64,000 bases of DNA, taken from Candidatus Latescibacterota bacterium. GTDB taxonomy: Bacteria; Krumholzibacteriota; Krumholzibacteriia; WVZY01. The stretch lies in the NCBI GenBank assembly GCA_963791045.1, contig CAWBQK010000009.1, forward strand, positions 128,001 through 192,000, read 5' to 3'. Shown here in pieces: positions 11,766 through 39,723 of this stretch (position 1 is its first letter; every line of letters begins with the position of its first letter). The notes below the pieces were generated by a model. It was not told the DNA's origin. It saw only the letters and a program-made list of their open reading frames with translations, and searched no databases. A program made the position numbers and the translations under genes.

Positions 11766-11783
11766 TTCGGTTTCCCCCAATAC

Positions 11784-12293
11784 TTAACGGAGACGTTTTA
11801 TGATGTGCCAGCCGAATTTGCTTTTTTTCGGATCGTAGTGAGCGAGGCCCACTGCCCCCACGTCGAGAGCAAACGACACGTCGCCAAAAGACGGGGCCAT
11901 CGACGAACGCGCAAATATCTGCATCTCGGGGTTGGCATCGTCTTCGTTGTTTACGACGGCATAAATCCCGGGGTACGAGTCATCCGTATACTCCTTGACC
12001 AACGCGCCAAAATCTCCGGTTGTTTTGGCCTCTTCGAATACTGACATGGCGAGTTCACGCGCTTCATCTTCCGAACGATCGAGGTCCTTGTTCGGAATGC
12101 TTCCTTTGAACGCGATCAGAATGTGCTGAACGGTGACTTTATCAACCGTGGGAATCGTCGAAGCCGCAGCGGAGGTCGCTTCCGATACTTCGGGCGACCC
12201 TGCCGTTTCACTTACGGTCTGATCTTTGGCGCCGCACCCGACGAGGATGAGCAGGATAGAAAGTACACACAATAGTCCCAGCCTATGCAACAT
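11784..12293 (-). CDS. Parvulin/PpiC-type peptidyl-prolyl isomerase, lipoprotein
   Basis: Lipobox LVGC; HILIAF and FGWHIIKR rotamase motifs; GGAGG before ATG at 12293. Confidence 0.9.
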   Translation of the reverse strand: MLHRLGLLCVLSILLILVGCGAKDQTVSETAGSPEVSEATSAAASTIPTVDKVTVQHILIAFKGSIPNKDLDRSEDEARELAMSVFEEAKTTGDFGALVKEYTDDSYPGIYAVVNNEDDANPEMQIFARSSMAPSFGDVSFALDVGAVGLAHYDPKKSKFGWHIIKRLR

Positions 12294-12483
12294 TATGGTG
12301 CCTCCCTGGAAAAAACGACGGCTCATGATTTGAGAATGCAAAGAGGAAAAGGGAACGCTGCGAATCACCAGAGTATTTTAACAGCAGTTCGCCGCGGAGT
12401 CAAAACCAAAGCAAACCGGTCAAAATGTGGTATTCTCCCAGGATTACAACCGACACCCACAGGCGCAAAGAGGACGGACCAAC

Positions 12484-15044: not shown

Positions 15045-16355
15045 TTATCTCAGGCGGAATCTCTGGGCGGTCCACTTGAACCAGTTGCCAAAGTGGAAGT
15101 AAATGTCCCCCTGCCGGTTGAAACCGACATCAAAACGGGTCATTTCGGTGCCCGGCACGAGAATCCGAAACCCCAACCCGAAACCGGTCTTCCAGCGATC
15201 GGTGTTGAACTCGTCGGAATCGCTCCACGCGATACCGGTATCGGAAAAAAGAGCCAGCTGGAGACCCAGGGCCGCAGACCATTTGAGAAAATTGTAGGCT
15301 TTCAGAGGAAGCAGTGTGAAATTGTATTCGAAGGTGCCAATGAGCTGGTTCTTGCCGTACAACACCTTCCCTAAATCTACATTGTACCCACGTATCGAGT
15401 TCGCTCCCCCGAGCCGGTACATGAGATATTGCGGCACATCCTCGCCGACAGTCCCCGTCTGGAGCGAGGTCAGGGCTCCGAGAAAGAATCCATTTCGTTC
15501 GTTGATCGGCTGAAAGCGGCGAATATCGATGTTCGTGGTAAGAAACGTTCCGTCGCCGGTGGTGAAAATCGCCTGGATTTCGTGCTCCCATCCTTCGCGC
15601 GGAACACGCCACGAATCGCGCGAGTCGTATCCAATCGACGCTCCGACGCGGAAGAAGTTGTCCGAGTTGTCCTCCGACAGGGTGATGCCGTCGACATCAG
15701 ATTCCATCCGGAAATACCCCAACATCCCCCTTACCCTGCCTTTTTCACCGATGTACCGGCCGAGCCAGGGCGTGACTTCATCGCTCATTTCCTCGAACTC
15801 GTTGAGCTCGTCGTCACGAATCAGGTGCGAGGCATCGAGATCGAAAGAGAGGTGATAGTCTCCCGTGATCCACGGCCACCGCAGGGTGATCAAGGCCGTA
15901 GTCGTGCCGCCAAAGAGCATGCGACCCGACAAACGCAATGCGCGGCCGAAAAGGTTTACAGACGAAATAGCGGGACCGACGGAAAATCCGTTTTCTTCTG
16001 TATAACGGAAGGCGAGGTATGGGATAAATGGCGGCATTTCCCTGAATTGCCACTCGAGCGCCACGCCATCACCGTCCTCTTCGGCATTAAGGATGATCGA
16101 CCCGAATATGCTGAGGTTTTCGAGGTTCGTGTAGCTCTCGGCAAGCAAGTTGAGATCGAGCGGGTCACCCACCTCGAGTTCGATTTCACGCGTAACAATG
16201 AAATCCTTCGTGGAGTTGTTGCCCGAATATGTCATCGACATGATCGTCTTATTCTCATAGGGGAGGAAACTCTCCTCGTCAAACTCAGCCCGGACGGAGG
16301 AGGGGATGAACGAAATCACGATTATGATGAGAATCAATCCGGAAACAAACCGCAT
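15045..16355 (-). CDS. BamA/TamA (Omp85) family outer-membrane protein with one POTRA-like domain
   Basis: Signal peptide; GNNSTKDFIVTREI (POTRA); LGGANSIRGY; GFGLGFR. Confidence 0.85.
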   Translation of the reverse strand: MRFVSGLILIIIVISFIPSSVRAEFDEESFLPYENKTIMSMTYSGNNSTKDFIVTREIELEVGDPLDLNLLAESYTNLENLSIFGSIILNAEEDGDGVALEWQFREMPPFIPYLAFRYTEENGFSVGPAISSVNLFGRALRLSGRMLFGGTTTALITLRWPWITGDYHLSFDLDASHLIRDDELNEFEEMSDEVTPWLGRYIGEKGRVRGMLGYFRMESDVDGITLSEDNSDNFFRVGASIGYDSRDSWRVPREGWEHEIQAIFTTGDGTFLTTNIDIRRFQPINERNGFFLGALTSLQTGTVGEDVPQYLMYRLGGANSIRGYNVDLGKVLYGKNQLIGTFEYNFTLLPLKAYNFLKWSAALGLQLALFSDTGIAWSDSDEFNTDRWKTGFGLGFRILVPGTEMTRFDVGFNRQGDIYFHFGNWFKWTAQRFRLR

Positions 16356-23777: not shown

Positions 23778-24136
23778 CTATATTTCACGTCTTTCTTCCC
23801 TCCATGTTTGTACTCCTTGTCGTTGTGCGTTCTGCACGCGGTCAATATCTATTTGGCCGCAATCGACCACGTGCTTAATGCGCATGGCAAATATCCCACA
23901 ATGTAATTGGCCGGAAACAGCCCATTGGTATGGGAACATCTCTGTGTGACCCGAACGCACGCGCAATCTTGAGAAGCATACGTGCATACCCGTGGCCCTC
24001 ACGTACGTCACCGGGCACGTGCGTTGCTGCATCCCCGCAACGCAAGACTAAATCAACCAAACATCTTTGATTTTACGCAGATAATTTTACTGTGGTTTTT
24101 GTGCGTCTGGACATTCAACCAAAGCAGGTGACGGCC

Positions 24137-27100
24137 GTGCGAAGAGTTTCCCAACAACACAGAGCATTCCGCATCATGTTACTCGCGGGTCTCGTTGGAC
24201 TTATCGCCGTAATGGGGAGCGCCGATAGTTTTGCATACACAAAACTCCAGGTGCTTCTTCCGGGCGAGACCGCCGACCCAGGAACGACAACGGGAAAAAC
24301 TGGATCGGCGCGCACACAAACGGTGGGACTCCCGTTCAACGTCCGCGTTCGCGCGTGCGATGATGCGTGGTATACGGATCCGACCGTCACCAACGTTGTC
24401 CGGCTCGGATCGACCGATGAGAGCGCGACGCTCCCCGGTCCGACATCACTCGTCGCGGGTGAAGTGCAACTCACCGTGGTGTTGAACTCGGCCGGAACAT
24501 TCACTTTCTCGGCGACCGATGATTCCGACGGGACGATTCCCGAAGCGGTTTCAACCACGGTCCGGGCGTATGCAATTCAGGGTTTCGAGTTTTCATCGAT
24601 CAACCAAAAGAACCAGTACGCCGGTCAGTCCATGCCGATCACGCTTTGGGCCTTAGACGCGAACGGAAACGTGGTGACCGGTTTTTCCGGACAGGTTCGT
24701 CTTGTCGAGATCACCAGCTACGGCGAAGGACGGATTTCACCCGATGTCGTGACGCTCTCGGGCGGCCAGTGGTCGGGCAGCTTGACAATGTATCGCGCCG
24801 ACGAGACGAGCATCAACCGGGGCAACGTTAACATCTATGCGTTTCTCGACGCCGATCAAACAAAGAACGGGACAAGTGATCCTTTTACCGTTCACCCCGG
24901 CACTCTCGCGCGGGTCCAGGTGGTCGCTCCCGGGCAGAGCCCCCTGCCGGGAAGCGTGAGTGGAGTCACCGGAGTCCCGGCGAGCCAGAGCGCCGGACAG
25001 GCGTTCACCGTCGACGTGTTTTCAACCGACGCGTATTGGAATCCGTTGCCGAGTACCGACATTGTCCGAATTACATCGTCGGACGGCGCGGCGAGCACAC
25101 CGGTATCCGGCGCGCTCGTCGACGGACACCGGCAGTTCTCGCTCTCGCTCGGAACAGTAGGAACACAGACGCTATCGGTTTCGGATCAGACGAACGGATC
25201 GATACAGGGGATGACGACCGCCCCAATTCCCGTGATCCCGAGCGCGCCGCACCACTTCGCAATCTCGACGATTTCCTCGCCGATTACGGCGGGTGATCCA
25301 GTCGCGGTAACAATCCGCGCGGTCGATGTAACGGGGAACACGATCCCCGATTACGACGGGAACGGCGTCCTGTCAGCCAATACCGGTCCGGCGAGTATCT
25401 CGCCCGAAGCGATTCAATTCTCGAATGGCGCGTGGTCGGGGGACATGGTGTTCAAGGGGGCCGGCGGCGCCGTTTCGTTCAACTGTTCGGACTTCTCTTC
25501 CCCGCCTCATATCGGAACGAGCAACAATTTTGAGGTGCTTCCCGGACCGTACATGGGGCTCCAGGTGCTTCTTGAAGGTCAGTCTCCACGTGGCGGGACG
25601 CAGGCGGGATACGAGGGCTCGCCGGACGATCAAAATGCCGGATCAGCATTCACAGTGACCGTCCGCGCCGTCGATGAGTTCTGGAACCGCGTACCCGGGA
25701 TCGACAACTCGATCTCGCTCCTCTCATCCGACGCCTTTGCCGATATGCCGGACGACACCGTCCTCCAGAACGGCGAGCTCGCGTTCCCCGTCACGCTCTA
25801 CCGCGTGGGGCATCAGACGATTACGGCGACCGACATCGATTCATCGACGATTGCATCGCACACATCGTCCCAGGTCAACATTCTTCCCGGTCCGTACGAA
25901 CGGATCGTCATCGTTGCCCCCGGGCAGACGATCGCGCCGGGGTCCGAGGAAGGACGGACGGGCGAGGCGACCGACCAGTCGATCAATTATGCGTTCACCG
26001 TGTCGGTATACGCGACCGACGCCTGGTTCAACCCAGTCGGCGCCGTGACCGACGTCATCAATATCACATCCAACGATCTTCTAGCCGAACTTCCGCCCGA
26101 CGCGACGATGGTCGACGGGCGCGTCGACCTGAGCATTCGTCTTTCGACCGGCGGATACCAGCAGATCACCGCGACCAACGTAACACAGCCCCTCATGCCG
26201 GCAAGCACCACAGAGGTGCGTGCGATATCAAGCGGATTCCATCTGGAAGCGGAAGTAACACCTACGACCCTTCAGGCCGGCGATCCGTTCGAGCTTACTG
26301 TCAAAGTGACAAACGACGCGGGAAGCGTAATACAGGAAATCAATTCGACTGTGACCGTCGAGATCCAGAACGCCGCAACGCAGGAGCCGGGTCGCGGGAT
26401 ACTCGAGAGCACAGAATTCCAGCTTCTCCAGGGGCAGCGGACGGTGACCGAATCCTACACGTTCGCCGAACAGATCGTTCTCGTGATCCATGACGACGCG
26501 GGGAATTCACCCGCGGTGACCGAAGTCATCACTGTGCTCCCCGGTCCACCGGCCTCGATTGCGCTTTCGAGCGATCCGCCGTGGGTTCGCGGCAACAAAC
26601 ACGCGACGATCTCCGCCGCCGTGCTCGACCAGTTCGAAAACGGTGTCCCTGATCAGGTCGTCGTCTTCGATCTCTTGAGCGGAATGGGGACGCTTTCACC
26701 AATCGATTCCGCAACCGCGAGCGACGGGGTCGCCCGCGCGGATTTCCTCAGCCCCCGCGAACCCGAGATCGGACGGATTCGCGCTACGTCGAACGGCATC
26801 GCCTCCGAAATGGATATCGAGACCGCCCTCGTCGATCCCAACAAGCCCGGCGGGACGGTGACGAACTACTCCGAACCCATTCCATCCCGGAGAAGCGCCG
26901 ACAACCATCGCGTACAAACTCTCCGACGACGCACGCGTGACGATGAAGATCTACACGCTGATGGGCGGCCTGGTGTTCGAGAAAGTTTTCGACCTCGGCG
27001 GAGAAGGCGGACGTACCGGGCTCAACGAATTCCAGTGGGACGGACGTAACGGAGAGAACGAACTCGTCGCCAGCGGCGGATACGTTCTGGTGATCGAAGC

Positions 27101-27158
27101 AAAGGGCGAGGGTGAAACCATACACAACATGCGCCGCAAGATCGCGGTCGTGCGCTAG
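24137..27158 (+). CDS. Large secreted Ig-like repeat surface protein with Big_1-like domain and C-terminal FlgD/T9SS-like sorting domain (frameshift at ~26870)
   Basis: Signal peptide ending DSFA; four LQVLLPG...F.V.V.A.D..W repeats. Removing T26870 gives NYPNPFHPGE...WDGRNGENELVASGGY...RRKIAVVR, joining ORFs 24092-27049 and 26937-27158. Confidence 0.8.
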
Positions 27159-27179
27159 AGAAGCGACCAAGGAGGCCTC

Positions 27180-28461
27180 ATGATACGCAGTCTCGAATAT
27201 GTCAAAAATGCCTTCGCGCCGGTCCTTTTGTTGGCGCTCATGCTTGCTGCTATCGGCGCCACAACGGCCCATGCCGAGGATCCCAACAACGGCGTTCCCG
27301 GCGACTGGTTCTCGCGGTACATGGGACCACATCCAGCGGGTCTCGGCGGGGCTTTCGTCGCACTTGCCAACGACCCGACAGGGGTCGTTTGGAACCCGGC
27401 GGGACTCTCGTTCATCTCGCAAAACACCATCCATCTCGAGTCGTCGCGTTACTTCGAATCGACGTCGATCAACGGGTTGAGCTTCGCCGTTCCAAGCCGG
27501 AAATTCCCGAGCATGGGGCTCACGATTCTCAATCTGCGCTCGGGGGATTTCGAGAAAACCAACGAGCTGAACGAATCGCTCGGTGAGTTCAACGAGAGTG
27601 ATATGGCCTTCATCTTTTCCGCATCAAAAACCTCACACACAAGTTTGCGCTCGGCGCCAACCTCAAGATCGTCCGTCAGGCGGTCGACGAGTTCGACGCG
27701 GCGGGCGTGGGAGTCGATCTGGGCCTGATGTTCAACGTACTTCCCACGGTTAGCCTGGGCGCGTCGTTTCTCAACATCGGCGGGCCGTCCGATCAACATG
27801 CGTGAGATCGAAGAAACATATCCGGCGGAATTCAGAGGCGGTGTCGCGTTGAGATTCCTCGACGGCCGGGGCCTTGTGGCCGCCCAGGTGAATCATCGCT
27901 CCGGTCCGGGAACGAGCTTTTTTGGCGGGACGGAGTTCTGGGTGTACCGCTCGCTTGCGCTCCGCGTCGGTTACGCGGCAGCGGATCCAAGCGGCGGTTT
28001 TAGTTACCGTGTGTCGCCGGATATTCGGTTTGACTACGCGGCGACCGATCAGGAACTGGGAATGATACATCGTTTCGGGTTTCCTATGAGTTCGGCGGCT
28101 TCTTCGCCAACTCGGAAGCGGTTCCCGAAGTGTTTTCGCCGCTCGGACAGCAGTCAGTGACGAAGTTCAATCTCAGTGCAAGTACAAAAGCCGCCGCGAG
28201 CTCATGGGGCTTCAAATCGTCGATAAGTCCGGTCAGGTCGTCCGGCGGTTCGCGGAAAAGGGGTTCCTCCCGCGCACATCATGTGGGATGGCAAGGATGA
28301 GACCGGGTTTCCGCTCCCCGACGGCATGTACAAGTACCAGCTCGTGGTCGATTGACGAATTCGGCGACGAACTCGTGGCCCATCTGAGAACCGTCGAGAT
28401 CACGACGGAGGGTCCGAAGGGAACCGTTCCCGTGATCACCGAAACCGCGACGAAGCAGTAA
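27180..28461 (+). CDS. PorV/PorQ-like (FadL-fold) outer-membrane barrel with C-terminal FlgD-like Ig domain (about 6 frameshifts)
   Basis: Signal peptide; LGGAFVALANDPTGVVWNPAGL. Across frames: LGANLKIVRQ...GVDLGL...LALRVGY...FDYA...HRFG, then LQIVDKSGQVVRRF...WDGKDETGFPLPDGMY. Confidence 0.72.
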
Positions 28462-28472
28462 GGAGTTCGCTC

Positions 28473-31400
28473 ATGGATCGCCAAACACGAATCATCGGAT
28501 TTGCCTTCGTTTTGGCTTTGCACCGGGCCGTGGTATGGAGCGCCGACCATGGGCGTCGCGGATGACGGCGCTGTGACGGCACGGCCGGCTGCGCTCAGCG
28601 ATATCGGGATAGAGTTCGACCGTGCTATGCGCGGTCCCGGTCGCGGACGCGCTGGACAATCTGACCGGTCTTGCCGTAGCCTCGATGCGTTCATCAACGA
28701 CAAAGTCTTAAAAAGAGATCGAAAACCGCCGCGTATTTCTTTCCGGGCGAAATTCAGTTCTGGCCTGGCGAATTTCGAAGCCGGCCGCCGATGCATTCGA
28801 GGAAGCGGACAAATCGGACAAGAAAGGATGAATGCCGACGATGCGGCGTTCGCGCGAAATCCTCGCATTCCAGGCCGATGCGGCAACGACGCCGACGCGG
28901 AAAAAAAGTGGCAGGAAGTGGGAGAGAACGTTATCCCCGGAAGCCCGCTCGTCCCGAAGCGCGCCTCGCCGCGAACGTGGAATGCGCTGCGCCGCGGCTC
29001 GCTCAAAGAGGTCGATGTACATCTCACAAAAATTGGAGACTGAGCAACCCTATATGTTGCAGATTCCCGTGTCGTTCTCGCACGAGCGACGGCATCATAT
29101 ATGAGGGGAAAACCCGATGACGCACTCGCACGCTCGCTGCACCCGGTGATAAGCAACAGGCGCCAGCACTATATCTCGCGGACTTCCTACCAGGCCGCGG
29201 GACAGATGCTAAAGGCCGCCGCGCAGTTCCAGACGGTCATCGAGCGATACCCGCTTTCGGGTCTCCGCGATCACGCGATGCTCGCCAAGGCAAATATTTT
29301 TCTCGACAGCGGAGCGTACAAGACCGCCGCGGAAGAATTCGAAATGGTGATCGCGCGCGCCAACGATGCGAATGTCGTCGCGCAGGCGGAACTTCGCCGC
29401 GCGGCTTGCGTCTTCCTCGATAATGATTTCGAAACGGGAACGCAGCTTCTTCGTGACGTCACGGTCAACGCCAGGGCACCGAGGTGGCCGCATGCGCCCA
29501 GCTTCTTCTCGGCGAAGTCATGATGAGCAGGTCACAGTACGATGAGGCGATCCTCGAATTCAACCGCGTGCTCTCGGAATACTTCGAGCACGAGCTTGCC
29601 GCAAGCGCGCAGTACCGCGTGGGACAGTGCCTCGACGCACTCGGCCGACATAAGGAAGCGACGAGCGCCTACCAGCTCGTCGTCTCGGGGTACCCCATGG
29701 CGCCACAGTCTCCGGCGGCGGCATATCTCGCCGGAGTCGGTCTCCTCGAAGAAAACCGGCCCCAGGTCGCGGCGCCCGTATTTCCAGCTCGTCCTCGATC
29801 GTTACACTGGTGACGCGGGCGAAGAGACAATCGTCTTCACATCGCCTGAACGCCAGGAACTCGTCGAGGCATCACTCTGTCTTCTCGAGTATGCGTACCA
29901 CTTGACTGGCGACCTCGGCCGACTCTCCGGCGTACCACACCTCATGCTCCAGCGGATGCCGAAGAGCCCATCGACCGTGGCGCGCATACGCACTACTCAT
30001 CGACGCGGACGCGCTCGCCGCACAGGGGCGTTTCGACGAAGCACAGACCATGCTCGGTTCGCTCATCGTTGAGTTTCCCGAACACGATGCCGCCGTGCCG
30101 GCAAACCGGCTCCTGGCGTGGACGTACGCGAGGCAGGGCAAAGACGAGCTTGCCATCCAGACCGAGGAACGGATGCTCGCCCGTTACGCAGCCGAAGCCG
30201 ATGCGACGAACTTGAGTTCCGCGTATCTCAACAAGGCGCACATTCTTTTCAACCGGAAGCAGTACGCCGACGCCGCCGACACCTATGATGATTTTCTCCG
30301 ACGGTTTCCCGGTCATTCCGACCGGCCGCTCGCGCTCTACCAGGCGGGGCTCTGCCACTACCGGCTCCAACGCACCGGTGACGCCGTCGACCGTTGGGAA
30401 GAACTCGTCGAAACCGACCCATCGGCCGAAATCGCAGAGCGCGCCTGGGCGCGCGCCGGTGACGTTTACTTCCAAACGGCGCATTACGAAGACGCCGGGC
30501 GGTGTTACCAGGGGCTCCTCGATAATTTCGCGGCGAGCCAGGGCGCCGCGCTCGGGATGCTCCGGATGGCGCAGTGCGACTACAACGCGGGCCGTGACGC
30601 CGAGGCGCTCGGCGGGTTTTCGGCGGTCGTTGAACGTTTCCCCGGAACGGGAGTGGGCCGCGAGGCGGAGCGCGGAATCGAACGCGCGCTCTACCGGCTC
30701 GGTCAAAGCGAAGACGGCACCGCGGTACTCGCTCAGCTGGTCGAAGAGTATCCGACAAGTTCATTCGCCGCGGACGCACAGTTTGAAATTGCGATGCGAC
30801 ACTACGAGGCCAAGGAATACACCGACGCAGCCGACGCCTTCCGGCGCGTGATCCGCCAGTTCCCCAGCTACTCGCGATGCCGACCGCGCACACTATCTAA
30901 TGGCGGACGCGTACAGCCAGTCCAGCGCGGACGGTGACGCGGAGCTCGCGTACGAACAGTTCCTGATGTTCTTCCCCGAGAGCGAATTCCGCTCTACGGT
31001 GCGGTTCCGTCTCGCGTCGATGCGTTTCGACGCGGAGGATTACATGCGGGCCGCGGTGGATTTCTCGAGCGTTATCGAAGAGGACACCGATCCCGAAATC
31101 GCCGCGGCCTCGCTCTTTAATCTCGCCATGTGCCAGCGACTGCTCCAGCAAACCGCCGAGGCGAGCGCGACTCTCGAACGGTACCGGGAACTCTACCCCA
31201 ACGACGAGCGCGCGCTCGACGTGGCGTATCAGCTGGGCGATATCTACGAGAACTCGGATCGTCCACAATCCGCAATCGGCGAATACGAAACAGCGTTGAC
31301 CCTTAACCCGGGCGATCTGACGGCGGAGCTTCATTTCCGAATCGGAAACTGCCGTGAAACATTGGGAGACGAAGACAGCGCCGTCGCCGCGTACAAAAAA

Positions 31401-31594
31401 GCTGTCGACACGCGGAACCACCGGATCCGTCCGGTTATCGGCGGTGGCACGATGCGCGGCGATCTATGAAACGAAAAAGTGAATTCAAGAAAGCGATCGC
31501 CGCGTATCGCGATCTCGTCGAAAACGCCGATGACCCAGAGCTCGTTGTCGCTGCCAGGGCGCGAGTCGAAGAGCTCGAAGCCGTCGTGAAGTAG
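28473..31594 (+). CDS. Large (~1000 aa) exported TPR-repeat protein, heavily frameshifted
   Basis: AGGAG + ATG at 28473. TPR segments lie in successive frames (FQTVIERYPLS; AQYRVGQCL; ALYQAGLCHY; YEQFLMFFPES; AYQLGDIY) and end ELEAVVK-TAG at 31594. Confidence 0.75.
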
Positions 31595-31643
31595 ATCGGT
31601 CGACACGAGACTGTCAGCAACAACTCAACAAGGAGACAAGCCG

Positions 31644-32384
31644 ATGTTTTCGAGCTTTAGCTGGATGGACGCAATGACAACGAGCCCGATCGTTCTCGTC
31701 CTCGTAATTTGCAGCGTGGTCACGCTCGGGGCCGCGATTGAACGGATCTATTACTACTCAAACGGCGGGAAAATCCCGACAAGACGTTCCGTAAAGCAGT
31801 GGTTCGGGTCCGTGAGGGCAGGCTCCACGACGCGACGGTCGCCTGCGAGGCGAGCCTGCACCCCTTCGGTCCTGTCGGGCTCGAAGTGCTCCGCGGCGTC
31901 GGACAAATCCGCCGACGCATTTGAGGAACGACTCCATGTCGCCTTGAGCGGCACAGAAGCTCCTCCTCGAAAGAAACTTGAACGTACTTGGGACGATGGC
32001 CGCGGTCGCGCCACTCATCGGACTTTTGGCACTGTGTGGGGCATCATGCGCGCATTCTCCGATATGGCGCAAACAGGTTCGGCGGCTCCATCGGTGGTCG
32101 CCGCGGGTGTCGCGGAGGCGCTCGTCACTACCGCGGCTGGGCTCGTCGTTGCCGTTCCCGCACTTATTCTCTACAACCACCTGTCGCGGAGGATGAACGT
32201 GATGCTCACCGTGGCGGAAAATCACAGCCGTACGCTCCGCACCGTGATCCTCGAAGAGATCGAGCGGCGCGAGAAAGCGGCAAAAGAAACGGTCGCCCTC
32301 GAGAAAGCACGGATCTCCCGCGACGAAGCACGCTCCCAGGCTGCTGCCGAAACACCCCAACCCGAGCCGTCGCTCACGAGGTAA
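31644..32384 (+). CDS. exbB: MotA/TolQ/ExbB proton-channel protein (four mutually compensating frameshifts)
   Basis: AGGAG RBS; LGTMAAVAPLIGL (alternate frame) then FGTVWGIM; GVAEALVTTAAGLVVAVPA. Confidence 0.88.
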   Translation: MFSSFSWMDAMTTSPIVLVLVICSVVTLGAAIERIYYYSNGGKIPTRRSVKQWFGSVRAGSTTRRSPARRACTPSVLSGSKCSAASDKSADAFEERLHVALSGTEAPPRKKLERTWDDGRGRATHRTFGTVWGIMRAFSDMAQTGSAAPSVVAAGVAEALVTTAAGLVVAVPALILYNHLSRRMNVMLTVAENHSRTLRTVILEEIERREKAAKETVALEKARISRDEARSQAAAETPQPEPSLTR

Positions 32385-32389
32385 CGCGG

Positions 32390-32802
32390 ATGGGCGCCCG
32401 AAAGAGAAAAGAAGAAGACAACGGCGGAATGTTCGAGGTCAATCTGACCCCGCTTATCGATGTGTCGCTCGTGCTCGTCGTAATGCTGCTCCTCGCGACG
32501 CCGCTCGCGTTCGAGTCGAGCATCATGGTGAGGAAGTCCGAGAAAACCGCGGCGAAGGCGGAAAAGAAAAACGACGTCAACCGGATTGAGCTGCGCGTCA
32601 TCTCGGCCGACGAGGTGCGGGTCAACCGGGAAGTCGTCGCGCGGGAAAACCTCGTCGACACCCTCAAGCCGCTTATAAGGTCGATATCGAACCCGTGGTC
32701 GTGATCGCCTGCGACACCGGAGTATCGCACGGCACGTTCGTCGATGTTCTCGACCGCGCAAAGATGGCAGGAGCGAAGGAAATTGCCGTCACCGGGAAAT
32801 AA
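32390..32802 (+). CDS. exbD: ExbD/TolR biopolymer transport protein, copy 1 (frameshift at ~32680)
   Basis: EVNLTPLIDVSLVLVV. C-terminus VVIACDTGVSHGTFVDVLDRAKMAGAKEIAV is in the next frame. Confidence 0.88.
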
Positions 32803-32817
32803 CCCGATGGAGAAAAC

Positions 32818-33243
32818 ATGAAGCCACTGATTACCGAAAAGTTGCCGACGATCGCGCGGATCAACGTGACGCCGATCATCGATGTGGCGCTCGTCCTCGT
32901 CATTATCCTGCTCGTCACCGCGCCGATGATCGCTGCGAGCAAGATGGAGATCGATCTTCCCGAGGCGAGGACGCGGAGCATTGAGGATGAGGTACGTGTG
33001 AGTGTGACTATCGACTCCGATGGCCGCGTCGCCGTCGACGAAGACGAGATCGAGCGTCGCTCGCTCGCTCGTGTGCTCCGGCAGCGGATCGACGACGTCA
33101 AAAGTGACAACCTGCTCGTGGTCGTCCGCGCCGACGCGGGAACATCTTATGAAGCCGTCCACGAGATCCTCGGAGAGGTCCGATTGGTGGGCGCCAAAAG
33201 AATCGCCATCGCGACACGTCAACGCGGGAAGGTCGACTTATGA
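32818..33243 (+). CDS. exbD: ExbD/TolR biopolymer transport protein, copy 2
   Basis: INVTPIIDVALVLVIILLVTAP, IDLPEA and VVRADAGTSYE motifs. Confidence 0.92.
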   Translation: MKPLITEKLPTIARINVTPIIDVALVLVIILLVTAPMIAASKMEIDLPEARTRSIEDEVRVSVTIDSDGRVAVDEDEIERRSLARVLRQRIDDVKSDNLLVVVRADAGTSYEAVHEILGEVRLVGAKRIAIATRQRGKVDL

Positions 33244-34187
33244 TGGGACCGAGCTTCGAACTCACGCGCGAACTTTCCGACGCCAGCCGCCGGACGCGCC
33301 GGAGCACGGCGCTGAGCGTTGGTGTGCATCTGCTCGCGTTCCTGTTCTTTCTTTTCGTCCACCAGGTCGCGCCGGAAGAGGAGGGGCTCACCGAAATCAC
33401 CTTTCTCGAACCCGTCGTGGAGCCGCTTCCCGCTGCGATCCCCGTAGCCGTCGCGAAGAGTAACCCGGCGCCTACGACAAAGATCGAAAGACAATCGCGG
33501 GACAAACGCGAACGAAAGTTCGAGCGCGATGTGCCGGTGGCCGATATTGCTCCTGAGCCGCAGGAGCTCAAACGCGCCGACGACAAACTGAGCGAGCGAC
33601 TCGCTTCGATCCAGGTGAAAGCAACCGAGAAAACCGTCGACATCGCGGCGCTCTCGACACCGTCCCCTGTTGGGCGGCCAAAGCTCGCCGGCACGTCGGA
33701 TACTTTCCAGCCGCCCGAGCGCGCGGAGCTCTCTCGCACCGATCCGGTGAAGACCAAACCCGTGGCGCTCTCGAGGAACCCGCGACGGATCCAGAAGGCC
33801 AATATCGCCACGACGCCGTTCAACAACACACCGATCGAACGCGCGCGCCCCAGGAAAACGGACAGTGACGCGCGTCGCGTTCTGGCAGGCGCACAACTTG
33901 TCGGTCCGGTTGCCGACCGTTCCGTCCTGTCGTACGACGTCCCCGACTATCCCGAGTGGGCCAAGACGGAGGCCGTCGAGGGATCTGTCACCATCTACTT
34001 CGTCGTTCTCCCCGACGGACGGGTCAAAGAAAATGTCATGGTCGAGAAAACAGCGGGGTTCGCCGATTTTGATGACAACGCATTGGAAGCAATCCTCGCC
34101 TGGCGCTTCGAGTCCTTAAAAGGAGGCGCGACGGGCGAACAGTGGGGCACGATTACATTTCACTATCGTTTGAGCGACACTAACTGA
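33240..34187 (+). CDS. tonB: TonB family energy transducer
   Basis: TM anchor with SxxxH (SVGVH); extended Pro/charged linker; C-terminal PDYPEWAK...VEGSV...VLPDGRV...FDDNALEAILAWRF. Confidence 0.88.
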   Translation: MMGPSFELTRELSDASRRTRRSTALSVGVHLLAFLFFLFVHQVAPEEEGLTEITFLEPVVEPLPAAIPVAVAKSNPAPTTKIERQSRDKRERKFERDVPVADIAPEPQELKRADDKLSERLASIQVKATEKTVDIAALSTPSPVGRPKLAGTSDTFQPPERAELSRTDPVKTKPVALSRNPRRIQKANIATTPFNNTPIERARPRKTDSDARRVLAGAQLVGPVADRSVLSYDVPDYPEWAKTEAVEGSVTIYFVVLPDGRVKENVMVEKTAGFADFDDNALEAILAWRFESLKGGATGEQWGTITFHYRLSDTN

Positions 34188-34216
34188 CGGATCCGATTTG
34201 GATTGGAGAAATCATT

Positions 34217-35185
34217 ATGAAGACCTTTTGCCGACGTAGATCGATTGAACTCGCCGCCTTCTTGTTCGTTATCCCGGGGCTCCTGTTTGCGACTGACGCG
34301 AATGCCGCGGATGAGAACACTTCGAAGGCGCCCGCCGACACAACGATGAAGCTCGAAGGCGGAGAGGAAGGGACCATCTTCAAAAGCCTACGGATCGAAG
34401 GCGAGGACCGCGTGCGGATAGAGTTCGACCGGCCCGCGCTCGATTTGTCGCTCGACCCGCGAACGGCGCCGGGCCTCGATTTTGAAATGGTGCTCGCCGC
34501 ACTCGACCGCGCCGGCCACGATCTCGTCACACCGTACATGGACGGTTCGGCGCTCAACCGTGGGCCCCGCTTTACGCGGCCGTGGCTCGATCTATTCGCC
34601 ACGGGCAGCGTAGTCCGATTCCAACCGGCGATCGAGGGGGTCGAAAAATGGCGTCTCGATGTCGCCGACTCGCGGGGACAAACGGTGATGAGTTACGAGG
34701 GAAAAGGAAAACCACCAAAAGAAATCAACTGGGACGGCAGGACGAGCGACGGCACACCGGCGCCCCCGGGGCTGAGGTACTCGTACGTCCTCGAGGCATA
34801 CGACCGAGCGGGAAACAAACGAAACTTTGTCGGTGACGGGTTCGAGATTCCGCCGTATATCGTCGAGGACAAACAGGGCTTCACGATGCTTTTCTCGGGC
34901 AAGGAACTGCAGAGGACATCGTCATCTCCAGGCGCTGCGATCCCCGCACCCATTATACTCGAAGCGGCGACGCGTATTAACCAGTCCGAAGCGTTCGCCG
35001 CACCCATTCGGATCCAGGTGACCGCACGATCGTTCGATGACGCCAAAAGAACCGCAGACGCGATCGTGAATGATCTCACTCCGCTTCTCCTCGGCGATCC
35101 AATCCGGCTCCAGCCAATCACCACGGTCGAGCCCGATGCGCCCGACACGGGGACAATCATGATCGCGGTGGGGATGGAGAAATAG
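34217..35185 (+). CDS. Exported protein with FlgD-like Ig domain and possible degenerate OmpA-like C-terminus
   Basis: Signal peptide ending ANA; WRLDVADSRGQTV...INWDGRTSDGTPAPPGLRYSYVLEAYDRAGN. Confidence 0.65.
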   Translation: MKTFCRRRSIELAAFLFVIPGLLFATDANAADENTSKAPADTTMKLEGGEEGTIFKSLRIEGEDRVRIEFDRPALDLSLDPRTAPGLDFEMVLAALDRAGHDLVTPYMDGSALNRGPRFTRPWLDLFATGSVVRFQPAIEGVEKWRLDVADSRGQTVMSYEGKGKPPKEINWDGRTSDGTPAPPGLRYSYVLEAYDRAGNKRNFVGDGFEIPPYIVEDKQGFTMLFSGKELQRTSSSPGAAIPAPIILEAATRINQSEAFAAPIRIQVTARSFDDAKRTADAIVNDLTPLLLGDPIRLQPITTVEPDAPDTGTIMIAVGMEK

Positions 35186-35224: not shown

Positions 35225-36811
35225 CTAGGATTCCTGAGTTGATTCGGTTTTGCCCCACCACCGGTGGGTCTTGTACGCGGCAAATAGAATAAGGAGCGCC
35301 CACACAATAAAGAGGAGATCGAAGAACAGAGAAGGATCGGATTGAAGCGTGGGCGGCACGGCGGACGGGCGCCGGAATACTTCGAGGTCTGTGGGTGATA
35401 CACGGATCATTACCCAGAACGCCTGCGGCACGCGAGAGAGCGATCCCCACAACCCACTTCCCCACAGCGCGCCCCAACCAGGATCGGTCTCACCGGTGAT
35501 TCCACCCGTCGAGATTCGAAGCCACTGGATGAGATTGAGCGCGGTGACGATATAGACTGACCCCTGTGCGATCCATCCCAACCGGCAGAACGCAAGCAGC
35601 CCGAGAACGACAAACGGCACCAGATCGACAAACCGGCGCATCCCGAATGACCAACCCGCCCACCAGTCGTTGGGGAGCGAATTCATAATCCACTGGAGAA
35701 CAAAAACACCGAGGATCGCGATGACAAGCCTACGTGTTTCCGGCTTGCGAAGCCACATCACCCATCCGGCCAGAGCGAGTACGAATAGCGGCGACCAGGT
35801 GAACAACCCATGGCGCGTTGAGAAGAGGACGTCCTTCAAGCGATCCATTCCGAGATGCAAGAACCCTTCGCCCTGCGGGAGATGCCACGGGGCGCCGTAG
35901 ATGATCGTCCACACAACAATCTGCGGGAGAAAGACAACAAACGCGCTCGCCGTGTATACGCCGACGAGCGACAACTGTTCTTTGGTCACATCACGAACCC
36001 CACCGCGCCAACCGAGGATCAACGGGAATACCCAGAAGACGACACCCTGCGTGCGGACAAGCGCCATCAATCCTACAACCGCGCCGAGGATCATCGCCCG
36101 CCGCGTCGTCCAATCGCCGCGCCAGCGGACACCAAGATAGAGCAGAACCGATGTGACAAAAACCGAGCACGCGTGCGAGAAGCTCGGCATTTGCAAAACA
36201 TAATAAATGAGCGGCGTGCCGAGATAGGCGCCGAGCATGGCGGCACTCCGCGCGCCGGGGGATGATTTCGAAAAGAATTCTTTGATGGTTCGGATGACGA
36301 GCGCGATGGACACGAGGAGATAGGTCCACGTCCCGAAGTGAGCCGCCCACAATGTCGATGACCCAAAGCCATCGGTGGCGATACCGGCGCCAAAGAGCGC
36401 GCCGAGCTTGGCGACAAGGGCGATCACGATGGCAAACGGGAGCCAGAGAAACGCCGACCCGAGGCCAAAGGGGTTCCCCCGTTTCCCGGTATCGGTGCGC
36501 GCGGCGAGTTCGGACCCGCCAACACCATTTTCGACCATTCCGAAGCGCTGATAATCATTGTCGAAGTCCACATCCCCATCCCACAAAATCGAATGCAGAT
36601 AAACAAGATACGATGAACTGTCGGGGACGAGGTAGTGAGGCTGCACGACTAGATAAAGAGCGACGAGGATGATCGCGACGATGGCCAGGTGGCGGAGGAC
36701 GGGGGGAGTGGCGGCACGTTCGCGCGACGCGGGGCGACCGGTTTTCTGAGAATCTGATGGGCGGCCGCGGCGTTTTGCCACTTTTTTCTCCCCGGGACGG
36801 CGGCTCGTCAA
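35225..36811 (-). CDS. Polytopic membrane protein, probable GT-C (PMT-like) glycosyltransferase
   Basis: PDSSSYLVYLHSILWDGDVDFDND, SFSHA, LFSTRHGLFTWSP and WWAGWSFGMRRF motifs; many TM helices. Start codon uncertain. Confidence 0.7.
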   Translation of the reverse strand: MTSRRPGEKKVAKRRGRPSDSQKTGRPASRERAATPPVLRHLAIVAIILVALYLVVQPHYLVPDSSSYLVYLHSILWDGDVDFDNDYQRFGMVENGVGGSELAARTDTGKRGNPFGLGSAFLWLPFAIVIALVAKLGALFGAGIATDGFGSSTLWAAHFGTWTYLLVSIALVIRTIKEFFSKSSPGARSAAMLGAYLGTPLIYYVLQMPSFSHACSVFVTSVLLYLGVRWRGDWTTRRAMILGAVVGLMALVRTQGVVFWVFPLILGWRGGVRDVTKEQLSLVGVYTASAFVVFLPQIVVWTIIYGAPWHLPQGEGFLHLGMDRLKDVLFSTRHGLFTWSPLFVLALAGWVMWLRKPETRRLVIAILGVFVLQWIMNSLPNDWWAGWSFGMRRFVDLVPFVVLGLLAFCRLGWIAQGSVYIVTALNLIQWLRISTGGITGETDPGWGALWGSGLWGSLSRVPQAFWVMIRVSPTDLEVFRRPSAVPPTLQSDPSLFFDLLFIVWALLILFAAYKTHRWWGKTESTQES

Positions 36812-37053: not shown

Positions 37054-39723
37054 ATGTCTGGGCGTCGGCGGACAGCCATTCCATCCATCCCATTCATCGT
37101 TCTCGCGATCATGGGAATTCTTACCCTCCTGGTTTCATCAGCGACAGCGGACGAATCAAAACCATCAGACGAAATTAAAGAAGTCAGACAAATTCGCGCG
37201 CTCAAAATCAACCCGCACGCGCCGAAGATCGACGGCAATCTCGATGACATCATTTGGCACAAGGCAGAGTTCTTTTCGGGGTTCACCCAGAAGGATCCCA
37301 AAGAGGGCGAGCCGGCGGCCAACCAGACCGAAGTCGCCGTTATCTATGACGAAAACGCCGTCTATTTCGCCGCGCGGATGCTTTCTCAAAAACCCGACGA
37401 CATCATGGCGACGGTGAGCCGCCGTGACAAGACGGGCAACTCGGAACGCGTCATCATATCGCTCGATACATATCATGACAAACGAACCGCATATTCCTTT
37501 GCCGTCACCGCGGCGGGCACGCGCATCGACTACTATCACCGCTCCGACAGCGAAGGCGACCGCGATTACGATTTTAATCCTGTGTGGGAAGCGGCATCGA
37601 TACGGACGGCGGACGGGTGGAACGCCGAAATGCGGATTCCTTTTACACAAATCCGTTTCAAAAACCAGGATGTCCAGACCTGGGGAATCAATATCAACCG
37701 CTTCGTCCCCACCGAGAGTGAGGACTCGTACTGGATCATGATTCCCAAGGAAGAGACGGGCTGGTCGTCGAAAATGGGTGAGCTGGTCGGGATCCAGGGG
37801 ATCGCGCCGTCCCGTCGCGTAGAGCTTCTTCCCTATTTCGCGAGCGACGCGAAGTCGTCAAATCAGGCCGACGCCGAAAACCCGTTTGCGCAAAAAAACG
37901 AGTTCGACACGCGCGTGGGCGGAAACGTCAAGATGGGTGTCGGCCCCAACCTCACTCTCGAGGGGACAATAAACCCCGACTTTGGCCAGGTCGAAGCAGA
38001 TCCGGCGGTCGTCAACCTCTCCGCCTTCGAGACGTTCTTCCCCGAACGGCGACCCTTCTTTACCGAGGGAAGCCAACTCCTTAAGGGCATTGGCCCGAGT
38101 TATTTCTATTCGAGACGGATCGGCGCGGCGCCGCACCACAGTCCCGACGCCGACTATGTGGATTCTCCGGATAACACGTCTATCATCGGCGCGGCGAAAC
38201 TTACCGGGCGGCTCAACTCGGGGCTGTCAATTGGCGTGCTCGGCGCGGTCACAGACCGGGAAAAAGCGCAGACCTTCAACACGTCGACTGGTGTCGAGGG
38301 CGTTGAAGAGGTCGAGCCGAGAAGCGGTTACGGCGTCGTCAGGCTCCAACAGGAAGTCGGCAAAAACGCGTCGACCATCGGCGTGATCTTGACAGGCGTC
38401 GAACGCAATATGTCCCCGGCGAGCGAACTCACCGAGCTTCTCTCGCGTCGAGCCGTGAGCGGCGGCGCCGACTGGAACCTCCGGTTTGCCGAAGGTAAAT
38501 ACGAACTGATGGGGTACGTCGGCGGGAGTCATGTCGAGGGCACCACCGAGGCAATCTCCGAAGTCCAGCAGTCGAGCGCGCATTATCTCCAGCGTCCCGA
38601 CGCCGATCATGTCCGTTTCGATCCGACACGGACATCGCTCAACGGTTGGGTTGGGAAACTCCGGTTCGACAAACGAGCCGGCAAACACTGGCGCGGAGGG
38701 ATGGGCGTAGATGCCGAGTCCCCAATGTTCGAAATAAACGATATCGGACAGATCAGCACGGCGGACGACATAAACAACTTCGCTTGGTTCTTGTACCGGC
38801 ACGACGACCCCGGCCGGCTCTATCAGAACTGGCGGATATTTGGCTCGGTGGGAAGCGGCTTCAACTTTGGCGGCGACCGTCAGTATGCGTACCTAGACCT
38901 CGAGGGCGTGTACACATTCAAGAACTTCATGGGGACATTCCTGGGCGTGGAGCTCTACCCCGCTTCGCAAAGCGACAACCTCACCCGCGGCGGCCCGTCG
39001 ATGGGAACCGGCAATGCCGGTAATATATGGCTCAGTCTCTGGAGCAACGGCAAAAACAAAACGACGTGGGACACATGGACGGGCTTGTGGGCGAATGAAC
39101 TCGGGCAGCGGGGATACCAGGTCGGGGCGCAAATGACCTTTCGGCCTGGCACACGCTGGGAACTGAGTGTCAACCCGCGTTGGGTTAACAAAACCGAACC
39201 CCGGCAGTATGTGACCGAAGAGGAGGGTGGAAGCGCCGCGACCTACGACATGCGTTACGTGTTCGCCTCGGTCGAAAGAAGCGAACTCTCCGCCCAGCTT
39301 CGGTTGAACTATGCGTTCACCCCAAATTTCACGCTTGAGTTTTATGCGGAACCATTTGCGTCGAGCGGAAAATACTCGAAGTTTGGCGAACTCGAAGCGG
39401 CGCGGAGTAAGTATCTGCGCGAATACGGAAGCGACGGCACATCGATCGAGAAGACCGGCGACGGAATCTACACGGTGACCGACGGCGATCAGACTTTCGA
39501 GCTCGAACAGAGCGATTTCAATTATGTATCTTTCCGTTCGAACATGGTCCTCCGTTGGGAGTGGAACCCGGGAAGCACACTCTTTGTCGTGTGGCAGCAG
39601 AATCGTTCGGATGATACGAGCGACGGCTCCCAGGTGGGGTTCAACAATCTCAGGGATTCGCTGTCCGCTCCGGGGGACAACTTCTTCGCGATCAAAGTGA
39701 CCTACTGGATCCCATTCTTGTAA
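37054..39723 (+). CDS. Exported CBM9-like + DUF5916 domain protein
   Basis: Signal peptide; PKIDGNLDD..W, GWNAEMRIPF and INPDFGQVEADPAVVNLSAFETFFPERRPFF motifs; LRWEWNPGSTLFVVW; AGGAG RBS. Confidence 0.85.
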   Translation: MSGRRRTAIPSIPFIVLAIMGILTLLVSSATADESKPSDEIKEVRQIRALKINPHAPKIDGNLDDIIWHKAEFFSGFTQKDPKEGEPAANQTEVAVIYDENAVYFAARMLSQKPDDIMATVSRRDKTGNSERVIISLDTYHDKRTAYSFAVTAAGTRIDYYHRSDSEGDRDYDFNPVWEAASIRTADGWNAEMRIPFTQIRFKNQDVQTWGININRFVPTESEDSYWIMIPKEETGWSSKMGELVGIQGIAPSRRVELLPYFASDAKSSNQADAENPFAQKNEFDTRVGGNVKMGVGPNLTLEGTINPDFGQVEADPAVVNLSAFETFFPERRPFFTEGSQLLKGIGPSYFYSRRIGAAPHHSPDADYVDSPDNTSIIGAAKLTGRLNSGLSIGVLGAVTDREKAQTFNTSTGVEGVEEVEPRSGYGVVRLQQEVGKNASTIGVILTGVERNMSPASELTELLSRRAVSGGADWNLRFAEGKYELMGYVGGSHVEGTTEAISEVQQSSAHYLQRPDADHVRFDPTRTSLNGWVGKLRFDKRAGKHWRGGMGVDAESPMFEINDIGQISTADDINNFAWFLYRHDDPGRLYQNWRIFGSVGSGFNFGGDRQYAYLDLEGVYTFKNFMGTFLGVELYPASQSDNLTRGGPSMGTGNAGNIWLSLWSNGKNKTTWDTWTGLWANELGQRGYQVGAQMTFRPGTRWELSVNPRWVNKTEPRQYVTEEEGGSAATYDMRYVFASVERSELSAQLRLNYAFTPNFTLEFYAEPFASSGKYSKFGELEAARSKYLREYGSDGTSIEKTGDGIYTVTDGDQTFELEQSDFNYVSFRSNMVLRWEWNPGSTLFVVWQQNRSDDTSDGSQVGFNNLRDSLSAPGDNFFAIKVTYWIPFL

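Follow-up and report, generated by a model that had tools for sequence, protein, structure and literature searches.

The window analysed in this work, i.e., a stretch of 64,000 nucleotides of contig CAWBQK010000009.1 (positions 128,001 to 192,000) from Candidatus Latescibacterota bacterium (assembly GCA_963791045.1), harbors on its + strand an operon of eight genes (24092-35185), which code, in this order, for an exported immunoglobulin (Ig)-repeat protein, an outer-membrane barrel of the PorV/PorQ family, a very long protein made of tetratricopeptide repeats (TPR), ExbB, two ExbD proteins, TonB, and a second exported protein, the product of gene 8 (hereafter g8). The reading that we favor, tentatively and with a confidence somewhat short of even, is that the operon represents a self-contained carrier module, which is coupled to a motor and dedicated to a single cargo, a surface adhesin.

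The eight genes are co-oriented and tightly packed, as the initial annotation of this DNA had described them; from gene 1 to gene 8, the gaps are 21, 11, 49, 5, 15, −4 (an overlap), and 29 bp, i.e., none is longer than 49 bp. The same annotation had proposed to check whether the block is conserved, and this turned out to be the case. The scan of species-representative genomes for g8 returned 88 relatives, and 80 of the loci were retained; wherever a locus extends at least 9.4 kb upstream of g8 (38 loci), the same eight-gene order is found, and in the shorter loci each gene permitted by the flank is present (TonB in 30/30, ExbD2 in 29/29, ExbD1 in 25/25, ExbB in 20/20, the TPR gene in 7/7, and the barrel gene in 6/6). 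The invariant order holds at protein identities down to about 40–50%. The relatives with a g8 locus are labelled as Krumholzibacteriota, Latescibacterota, and Eisenbacteria, together with a few evidently mislabelled bins. Within the set of 41 relatives, 29 harbor g8 (16 of the 21 high-quality ones), and in the phylum (Krumholzibacteriota according to the record titles) the gene was found in 86 out of 125 high-quality genomes, representing 48 of 64 genera. Two or three g8 matches each were found in G057, G104, G109, G123, and G135, among others, which suggests paralogous copies of the operon. A language-model search for look-alikes, whose results are to be taken as leads only, retrieved the architecture of a barrel followed by a FlgD_ig domain also from WOR-3 and Eiseniibacteriota, and g8-like proteins from Elusimicrobiota.

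As genes 2–5 are split over many reading frames in the window, the orthologous genes of the single-contig relative G010 (locus L019), which are unbroken there, served as a proxy for the family and fold work, and the reading-frame pieces of the window were scored against Pfam. The frameshifts, which the initial annotation had already pointed out, were confirmed by a frameshift-aware alignment between the proteins of G010 and the nucleotide sequence of the window: there are 31, all of them between 26870 and 32696 (one in the Ig-repeat gene, six in the barrel gene, 17 in the TPR gene, six in exbB, and one in exbD1), and none in ExbD2, TonB, and g8. The same alignment revealed no in-frame stop in the broken genes, whose identity to G010 (74–82%) is equal to or above that of their intact neighbors (66–78%). 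Moreover, contigs of related strains, which are short and of low depth and come from four public sequencing runs, contain frame-restoring indels at or near six of the 31 sites, among 12 of 44 indel rows (28828/9, 28855/6, 28877-9, 31419-29, 31471-9, and 32676-96). Because of the absence of in-frame stops, the high identity, and the frame-restoring indels, the frameshifts most likely represent assembly errors, and the operon would be intact in nature. Pseudogenisation was ruled out as their cause, given that no in-frame stop occurs and that the identity matches that of the intact neighbors. The source genome is a metagenome-assembled genome of 21 contigs (80.9% complete, with 5.8% contamination), and a search of public sequencing runs gave only small shares (0.08 or less), in six runs. 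A further region of the same genome (L105, described below) is broken by frameshifts just as the window is between 26870 and 32696.

Gene 1 extends from 24092 (with a probable ATG at 24176) to 27158 on the + strand, with one assembly frameshift near 26870, and codes for an exported protein of about 1000 residues with repeated internal Ig-like modules; the Pfam family Big_1 reached 33.8 bits, under its cut-off of 34.9, and no catalytic domain was detected by the family searches of the window pieces and of the G010 orthologue. The C-terminal sorting-like domain that the initial annotation had attributed to this protein is supported as far as a general resemblance goes: the last 98 residues match FlgD_ig above the cut-off (32.1 bits versus 27; CHU_C reached 17 bits, with a cut-off of 27), and the tail of the G010 orthologue (its last ~100 residues) aligns with the PorZ, PorU, and M6i models at their C-terminal domain (CTD) ends, with E values from 1e-9 to 6e-6. 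The match to the type A CTD model falls slightly short of the cut-off; we return to it when weighing the reading. In G010 (L019:2568-7682), the 5' region of gene 1 differs by replacement or rearrangement, a gene for an FG-GAP repeat protein lies upstream, and no sigma-54 element was seen there; a transposase of the IS3/IS481 type (L019:16096-17151) follows g8 in the same genome.

Gene 2 (27180-28461, + strand, six assembly frameshifts) codes for the PorV/PorQ-family outer-membrane barrel, which carries a C-terminal FlgD_ig domain. The initial annotation had regarded it as PorV-like and as distinct from a TonB-dependent receptor, and the results agree. The G010 orthologue, with which the window barrel shares 81.6% identity when the frames are followed, matches the PorV/PorQ family model NF033709 with 101.4 bits, above the curated cut-off of 90, and FlgD_ig with 38.9 bits; judged from these profiles, the barrel belongs to the PorV/PorQ family in its wider sense, being an equivalog of neither PorV nor PorQ. 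Its AlphaFold model (pLDDT 81.5) has as best solved structures the PorV of F. johnsoniae in SprA complexes (8gl6_F, E 4e-10; 6h3i_F, E 2e-9; TMt 0.61–0.63). Furthermore, a profile built from 25 orthologues and compared with solved structures retrieved PorV at E 3.5e-11 and also FlgD, and no FadL structure. Since the FlgD_ig domain follows the last strand, it should be periplasmic according to the topology of outer-membrane proteins; it has in common with g8 the motif GKG-PP-x-WDG-x-G-x-P-x-G-x-Y-x-Y.

The third gene (28473-31594, + strand, 17 assembly frameshifts) codes for an all-TPR protein of ~1040 residues, whose N-terminal helix is a signal or an anchor and which lacks a lipobox Cys. In Pfam, both the window pieces and the orthologue match TPR families alone; among the more specific models, the orthologue reached 234 bits with the YbgF/CpoB repeat model over nine stretches, 170 bits with BamD, and 127 bits with PorW/SprE (cut-off 250).

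Genes 4–7 encode the motor. The ExbB/TolQ-type proton channel subunit (31644-32384, + strand, six assembly frameshifts) matches PF01618 (MotA_ExbB) with 74.4 bits in the window and 115.8 bits in the orthologue; the latter scored 113.8 bits with the TolQ model (cut-off 221) and 93.1 bits with the ExbB model, both under the cut-off, and the operon ExbB is only 32–33% identical to the two other ExbB/TolQ proteins of the genome. ExbD1 (32390-32802, +, PF02472, one assembly frameshift near 32696) and the intact ExbD2 (32818-33243, +, PF02472 with 96.4 bits) keep the transmembrane Asp in '...LTPLIDVSLVLVV...' and in '...VTPIIDVALVLVI...', respectively, and share an identity of only 29–31%; the TolR model gave 84.7 bits (cut-off 127) versus 62 bits for the ExbD model. 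In TonB (33240-34187, +, intact), a long linker separates an N-terminal helix, which carries the S-x3-H motif, from a TonB_C domain (47.3 bits), and S26 and H30 of the motif are invariant in all 25 aligned orthologues. The families forming the core of a Ton system (PF01618, PF02472 twice, and PF03544) were thus all retrieved above their cut-offs; none of the operon proteins reached the cut-offs of the TolQ, TolR, and TolA models, and no TolB-like propeller is encoded in the operon. The operon also has no TonB-dependent receptor in it or beside it, in agreement with the initial annotation, and none was found on contig C9; the single TonB_dep_Rec match and the three Plug matches of the genome (two of them above the cut-off) lie on contigs C1, C3, and C11.

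The last gene (34217-35185, + strand, intact) codes for g8, an exported protein without a lipobox. It had been described as FlgD-like, and this holds for a FlgD_ig domain (28.8 bits; residues ~130–211 in the structure model); the structure model and fold matches, which include FlgD and MotB-C, additionally place an OmpA/MotB-like domain at residues ~212–322. The N-terminal ~100 residues are conserved, without a confident fold in the model. The C-terminal domain matched MotB-C, the TagL anchor, and 3oon (VIA) with Z values of 10–11 and a root-mean-square deviation of 2.9–3.4 over 100–110 residues, and the fold of the FlgD_ig domain also resembles the CTD of PorU (Z 9.2, VIA); Pfam OmpA (PF00691) gave no match at an E value of 0.01 or better. 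On the basis of the model, the OmpA/MotB-like domain is possibly wall-binding.

The rest of the genome (G000) was checked for the parts of a type IX secretion system (T9SS), as the initial annotation had recommended. SprA is encoded outside the operon, on G000:C15 (TIGR04189, 543 bits, cut-off 200), and is present in 40 of the 41 relatives, including all 21 high-quality ones. PorU (554 bits) is directly followed by a PorV-like barrel with a family score of 217 bits, and a second pair consists of an M6-like CTD protein and a PorQ-like barrel; overall, 14 PorV-family matches and 99 Por_Secre_tail matches (97 marked above the cut-off) were retrieved. The regions with outer-membrane genes of the T9SS are C7:200398-204856, C10:96687-100957, and C15:124945-129516. 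Regarding the energy-providing part, the supposed absence of PorLM agrees with the searches: without a T9SS-positive control, which leaves their sensitivity unproven, GldM (TIGR03517) was retrieved from none of the 41 genomes and GldL (TIGR03513) from none above the cut-off (one match of 19.8 bits), and in the own genome alone GldK reached at best 23.6 bits (cut-off 350) and GldN gave no match. The 14 control genomes run with the GldK/L/M/N models are all without a T9SS; in the genomes under study, however, the same approach did recover SprA, PorU, and PorV. PF12080 had no match in the own genome, which is 80.9% complete, and for PorW/SprE no protein of 21 genomes scored above the cut-off, the matches under it being to generic TPR proteins only.

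Three further motor systems were found in the same genome. On C15 lies a canonical Tol-Pal cluster with TolQ, TolA, TolB, Pal, and YbgF; as this cluster is elsewhere in the genome, the possibility that the operon itself is the Tol-Pal system was ruled out. A second TonB cluster (L103, G000:C1:50000-67000) encodes a TonB of 287 residues, ExbB, ExbD, a 391-residue protein without an assigned family, a FadL/BamG-like barrel of 411 residues (127 bits with the BamG model, under the cut-off), and two TPR proteins; its barrel is present in 37 of the 41 relatives, including five high-quality genomes that lack the operon studied here. A third one (L105, G000:C15:77000-93000) comprises a receptor-like outer-membrane protein with a CarboxypepD_reg domain, a PorV-family fragment, pieces of ExbB/ExbD, TonB, and a TolC-like protein.

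Taken together, these data are consistent with the following working model. The Ig-repeat protein would be exported by Sec and would then pass the outer membrane via the SprA translocon of the genome; its own PorV/PorQ-like barrel would hold it at the surface by the CTD-like tail, as PorQ does with PorZ and SprF with SprB. The periplasmic Ig domain of the barrel, g8 with its paralogous Ig domain, and the giant TPR scaffold might form a connection from the barrel to TonB, which the ExbB-ExbD1/ExbD2 stator would cause to pull, at the expense of the proton-motive force; the pull, in turn, would either release the carrier–cargo pair from SprA or move or tension the adhesin; in Flavobacterium, the release from SprA is the step for which type IX transport needs energy. 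Lauber et al. (2024, PMC10994853) state that the loading of substrates onto SprA-PorV is energy-free, that energy is required to drive the carrier together with its cargo off the SprA translocon, and that the same energy chain drives carrier-anchored adhesins. Such a carrier-extraction step fits the operon well, in which a cargo and a carrier bearing a periplasmic handle occur together with a scaffold, a protein of a possibly wall-binding type, and a TonB motor; the operon also fits a dedicated module, because it contains one private cargo and one private barrel. The recurrence in the genome of CTD proteins adjoining PorV/PorQ barrels (PorU-PorV and the M6-like and PorQ-like pair) further supports this reading.

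Several points weigh against the dedicated carrier module. The G010 barrel is far under the cut-offs of the equivalog models (PorQ 83.6 bits, cut-off 220; PorV 22.9, cut-off 250; PorV2 56.9, cut-off 325), and in the fold search FadL/TodX channels come close behind PorV (E 1e-8). The PorW/SprE model ranks other TPR proteins above that of the operon, which is hence not specifically SprE/PorW-like. The tail of the gene 1 orthologue in G010 scored 20 bits with TIGR04183 (type A CTD), under the curated cut-off of 23, and the window copy of gene 1 is not among the 99 CTD matches of the genome. The absence of GldKLMN comes from searches that included no known-positive genome. Finally, the coupling of TonB to the barrel or to other operon proteins, like every contact between these proteins and the direction in which work is done, is something that we infer, in the case of TonB from synteny alone, and the host is uncultured.

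The L105 cluster, in which a PorV-family barrel fragment is joined to a protein resembling TonB-dependent receptors, would favor an uptake role for such barrels. According to this alternative, the Ig-repeat protein would capture a substrate at the surface, in the manner of SusD-like and other surface lipoproteins, and TonB would open the FadL/PorV-like barrel to admit it. Import is the textbook role of TonB; moreover, the model of the barrel shows a FadL/TodX fold with an N-terminal hatch-like segment, and the genome has only three Plug matches, two of them above the cut-off, for three TonB systems. Nevertheless, neither a 22-strand receptor nor a plug domain is encoded in the operon or on contig C9, a need for TonB is not known for FadL-type channels, and no conserved neighbor of the block codes for a binding protein, an ABC importer, or another inner-membrane importer; nor do the known import systems have a role for an OmpA-like protein such as g8 or for the giant TPR protein. 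On balance, we consider an uptake device unlikely. Much the same can be said of a paralogue of Tol-Pal, in which a TolQ/R/A-like motor would mobilise g8, tethering the barrel to peptidoglycan, a CpoB-like TPR protein would coordinate wall remodelling, and the surface protein would be incidental. The higher scores of the TolQ and TolR models over those of ExbB and ExbD, the nine YbgF/CpoB repeats of the TPR protein, and the OmpA/MotB-like fold predicted for g8 all point in this direction, as does the report, in sections 8 and 10 of PMC12204202, of unexplored motor-driven tethering systems and of TPR-TolQ-TolR-TolR-transducer clusters. A complete Tol-Pal cluster exists elsewhere in the genome, however, the operon has no TolB-like propeller, and g8 has neither a lipobox nor a sequence match to Pfam OmpA; furthermore, such a paralogue would leave unexplained why the first two genes are invariably those for a CTD protein and a PorV-like barrel. 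We regard it, too, as an unlikely explanation.

The initial annotation had gone further and seen in the operon a substitute for PorLM. In the strong form of this idea, type IX secretion in the lineage would generally draw its energy from the operon, with a motor of the Ton type in place of PorLM/GldLM for every CTD cargo; this would explain why SprA, PorU, PorV, and 99 CTD matches coexist in the genome with no GldK and GldN found, with no GldM or GldL above the cut-off in 41 genomes, and with no SprE/PorW above it in 21. This part of the proposal did not hold. Five of the 21 high-quality relatives (G001, G009, G013, G018, and G039) harbor SprA above the cut-off and lack both g8 and a TPR orthologue (the best match being of 52 bits), so that the operon does not appear to be the general T9SS motor of the lineage. 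In addition, 39 of the 125 high-quality genomes of the phylum are without g8, the operon has one private cargo and one private barrel, and a more widespread cluster of TonB, ExbB, ExbD, a barrel, and TPR proteins exists (barrel in 37/41). A general motor is in our opinion very unlikely. It might also be argued that the CTD protein and the barrel on the one hand, and a housekeeping TonB system with its TPR protein on the other, are two independent modules that are merely adjacent, both kinds of module being found separately in the genome. Against this stand the order of the genes, invariant in 38 out of 38 loci at identities down to ~40–50% and with gaps of at most 49 bp and one overlap, and the FlgD_ig domain common to the barrel of the former module and to g8 of the latter; in the five high-quality relatives without g8, where the searches covered g8 and the TPR protein, the TPR orthologue is missing as well. 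Mere adjacency is thus highly improbable in our view, and the dedicated carrier module is the reading that we retain.

A broader proposal, which we put forward as doubtful, extends this reading to the whole lineage. Krumholzibacteriota and the allied candidate phyla of the FCB group might carry out type IX secretion without the GldLM/GldKN rotary chain, with ExbB-ExbD-TonB wired directly to PorV-family barrels via the Ig handle of the barrel, the Ig-OmpA protein, and the TPR scaffold, and with a linear pull by TonB to extract carriers or to move adhesins, for which Bacteroidota use the rotary motor; the operon would then be a cargo-dedicated form, and the other TonB-barrel-TPR clusters further forms of the same arrangement.

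Concerning its regulation, a promoter element of the sigma-54 (−24/−12) type, GGGCAC-N5-TTGCT, is located at 24013-24028 (+ strand), 163 nt before the ATG at 24176. The sigma-54 pattern has only two matches in the whole window on both strands, one of which is this element; it lies at −153 to −169 in all six sequences with a confidently located start of gene 1 and, with a looser pattern, it was found in 10 out of 14 sequences with upstream DNA. The genome harbors rpoN, and from these sequence patterns the operon is probably under sigma-54 control. No gene for an NtrC-type activator was found near the operon in the window; in G038 (L021:17244-18680), a gene for such an activator (receiver, Sigma54_activat, and HTH_8) directly adjoins g8 on the opposite strand.

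The genes downstream of the operon encode a multi-pass membrane protein of 528 residues with no family match (35225-36811, − strand) and a protein of 889 residues with CBM9 and DUF5916 (37054-39723, + strand), neither of which has been retained next to the operon in the four relatives that were compared. Elsewhere in the window, a 743-residue protein (9549-12368, − strand) that combines a thioesterase-like region with a Por_Secre_tail CTD adjoins a PPIC-type peptidyl-prolyl isomerase, and a small protein of the Omp85 superfamily (436 residues) is encoded at 15045-16355 (− strand).

The T9SS is described as dependent on GldLM/PorLM, a motor whose energy has to reach the carrier barrel at SprA; this phylum combines SprA, PorU, PorV, and about 100 CTD proteins per genome with no detectable GldKLMN and with Ton-type motors found repeatedly beside PorV-like barrels. 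If the coupling proposed here is true, the operon would offer a far simpler energy chain for dissection (eight genes, one cargo, and one carrier), the clients of TonB would extend past the plug-and-barrel importers, and there would be a hint as to how T9SS-type display worked before, or without, a rotary motor. If it is false, the operon would still represent a conserved and undescribed envelope system of abundant uncultured bacteria. The literature that we searched on the T9SS, Krumholzibacteriota, and SprA/PorV/TonB, at the level of abstracts plus passages of PMC10994853 and PMC12204202, contains no description of this gene set.

The comparison with known systems can be depicted as follows. 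As in the pairs of the Bacteroidota T9SS (PorV-PorU, PorQ-PorZ, and SprF-SprB), the PorV/PorQ-family barrel of the operon adjoins a surface protein bearing a CTD-like domain, and, as in the energy chain of that system (GldLM, GldKN, and SprE/PorW), a proton-driven motor and a large TPR protein belong to one functional set; the proton-driven motors of both are members of the 5:2 stator superfamily, and SprA, PorU, and numerous CTD cargo proteins are likewise encoded in the genome. The operon differs from the T9SS in that its motor is ExbB-ExbD-ExbD-TonB and not GldLM, with no genes for the GldK/N ring found; its barrel carries an extra FlgD_ig domain, which should be periplasmic; a protein with Ig and OmpA-like domains is added; and one operon holds everything for one cargo and is dispensable in some SprA-bearing relatives.

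With the Ton system, the operon shares ExbB, ExbD with its transmembrane Asp, and a TonB composed of an S-x3-H helix, a linker, and TonB_C; unlike that system, it has no plug-and-barrel receptor and two heterologous ExbD proteins, and the outer-membrane partner would be a PorV-like barrel of the 14-strand type or a periplasmic protein. The TolQ/R-like stator, the TolA/TonB-like transducer, the protein with an OmpA-like fold, and the CpoB-like TPR repeats recall Tol-Pal; the operon is nevertheless without TolB, g8 is no lipoprotein, and the TPR protein is about ten times as long as CpoB. The Agl-Glt gliding machinery of Myxococcus also joins, in one unit, a TolQR-like motor, periplasmic proteins bearing TonB_C, TPR proteins, outer-membrane barrels, and a surface adhesin; compared with it, the operon is far smaller (eight genes), its barrel belongs to the PorV family, and sequence orthology is limited to generic domains. 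Finally, Williams-Jones et al. (2025, PMC12204202) report TPR-TolQ-TolR-TolR-vWA transducer clusters of unknown function, and sections 8 and 10 of that work do not describe the present eight-gene set. Genes 3–7 of the operon follow the same gene order as these clusters; the differences are that the head of the transducer is TonB_C instead of vWA and that g8 is added, as are the CTD protein and the PorV-like barrel encoded by the first two genes.

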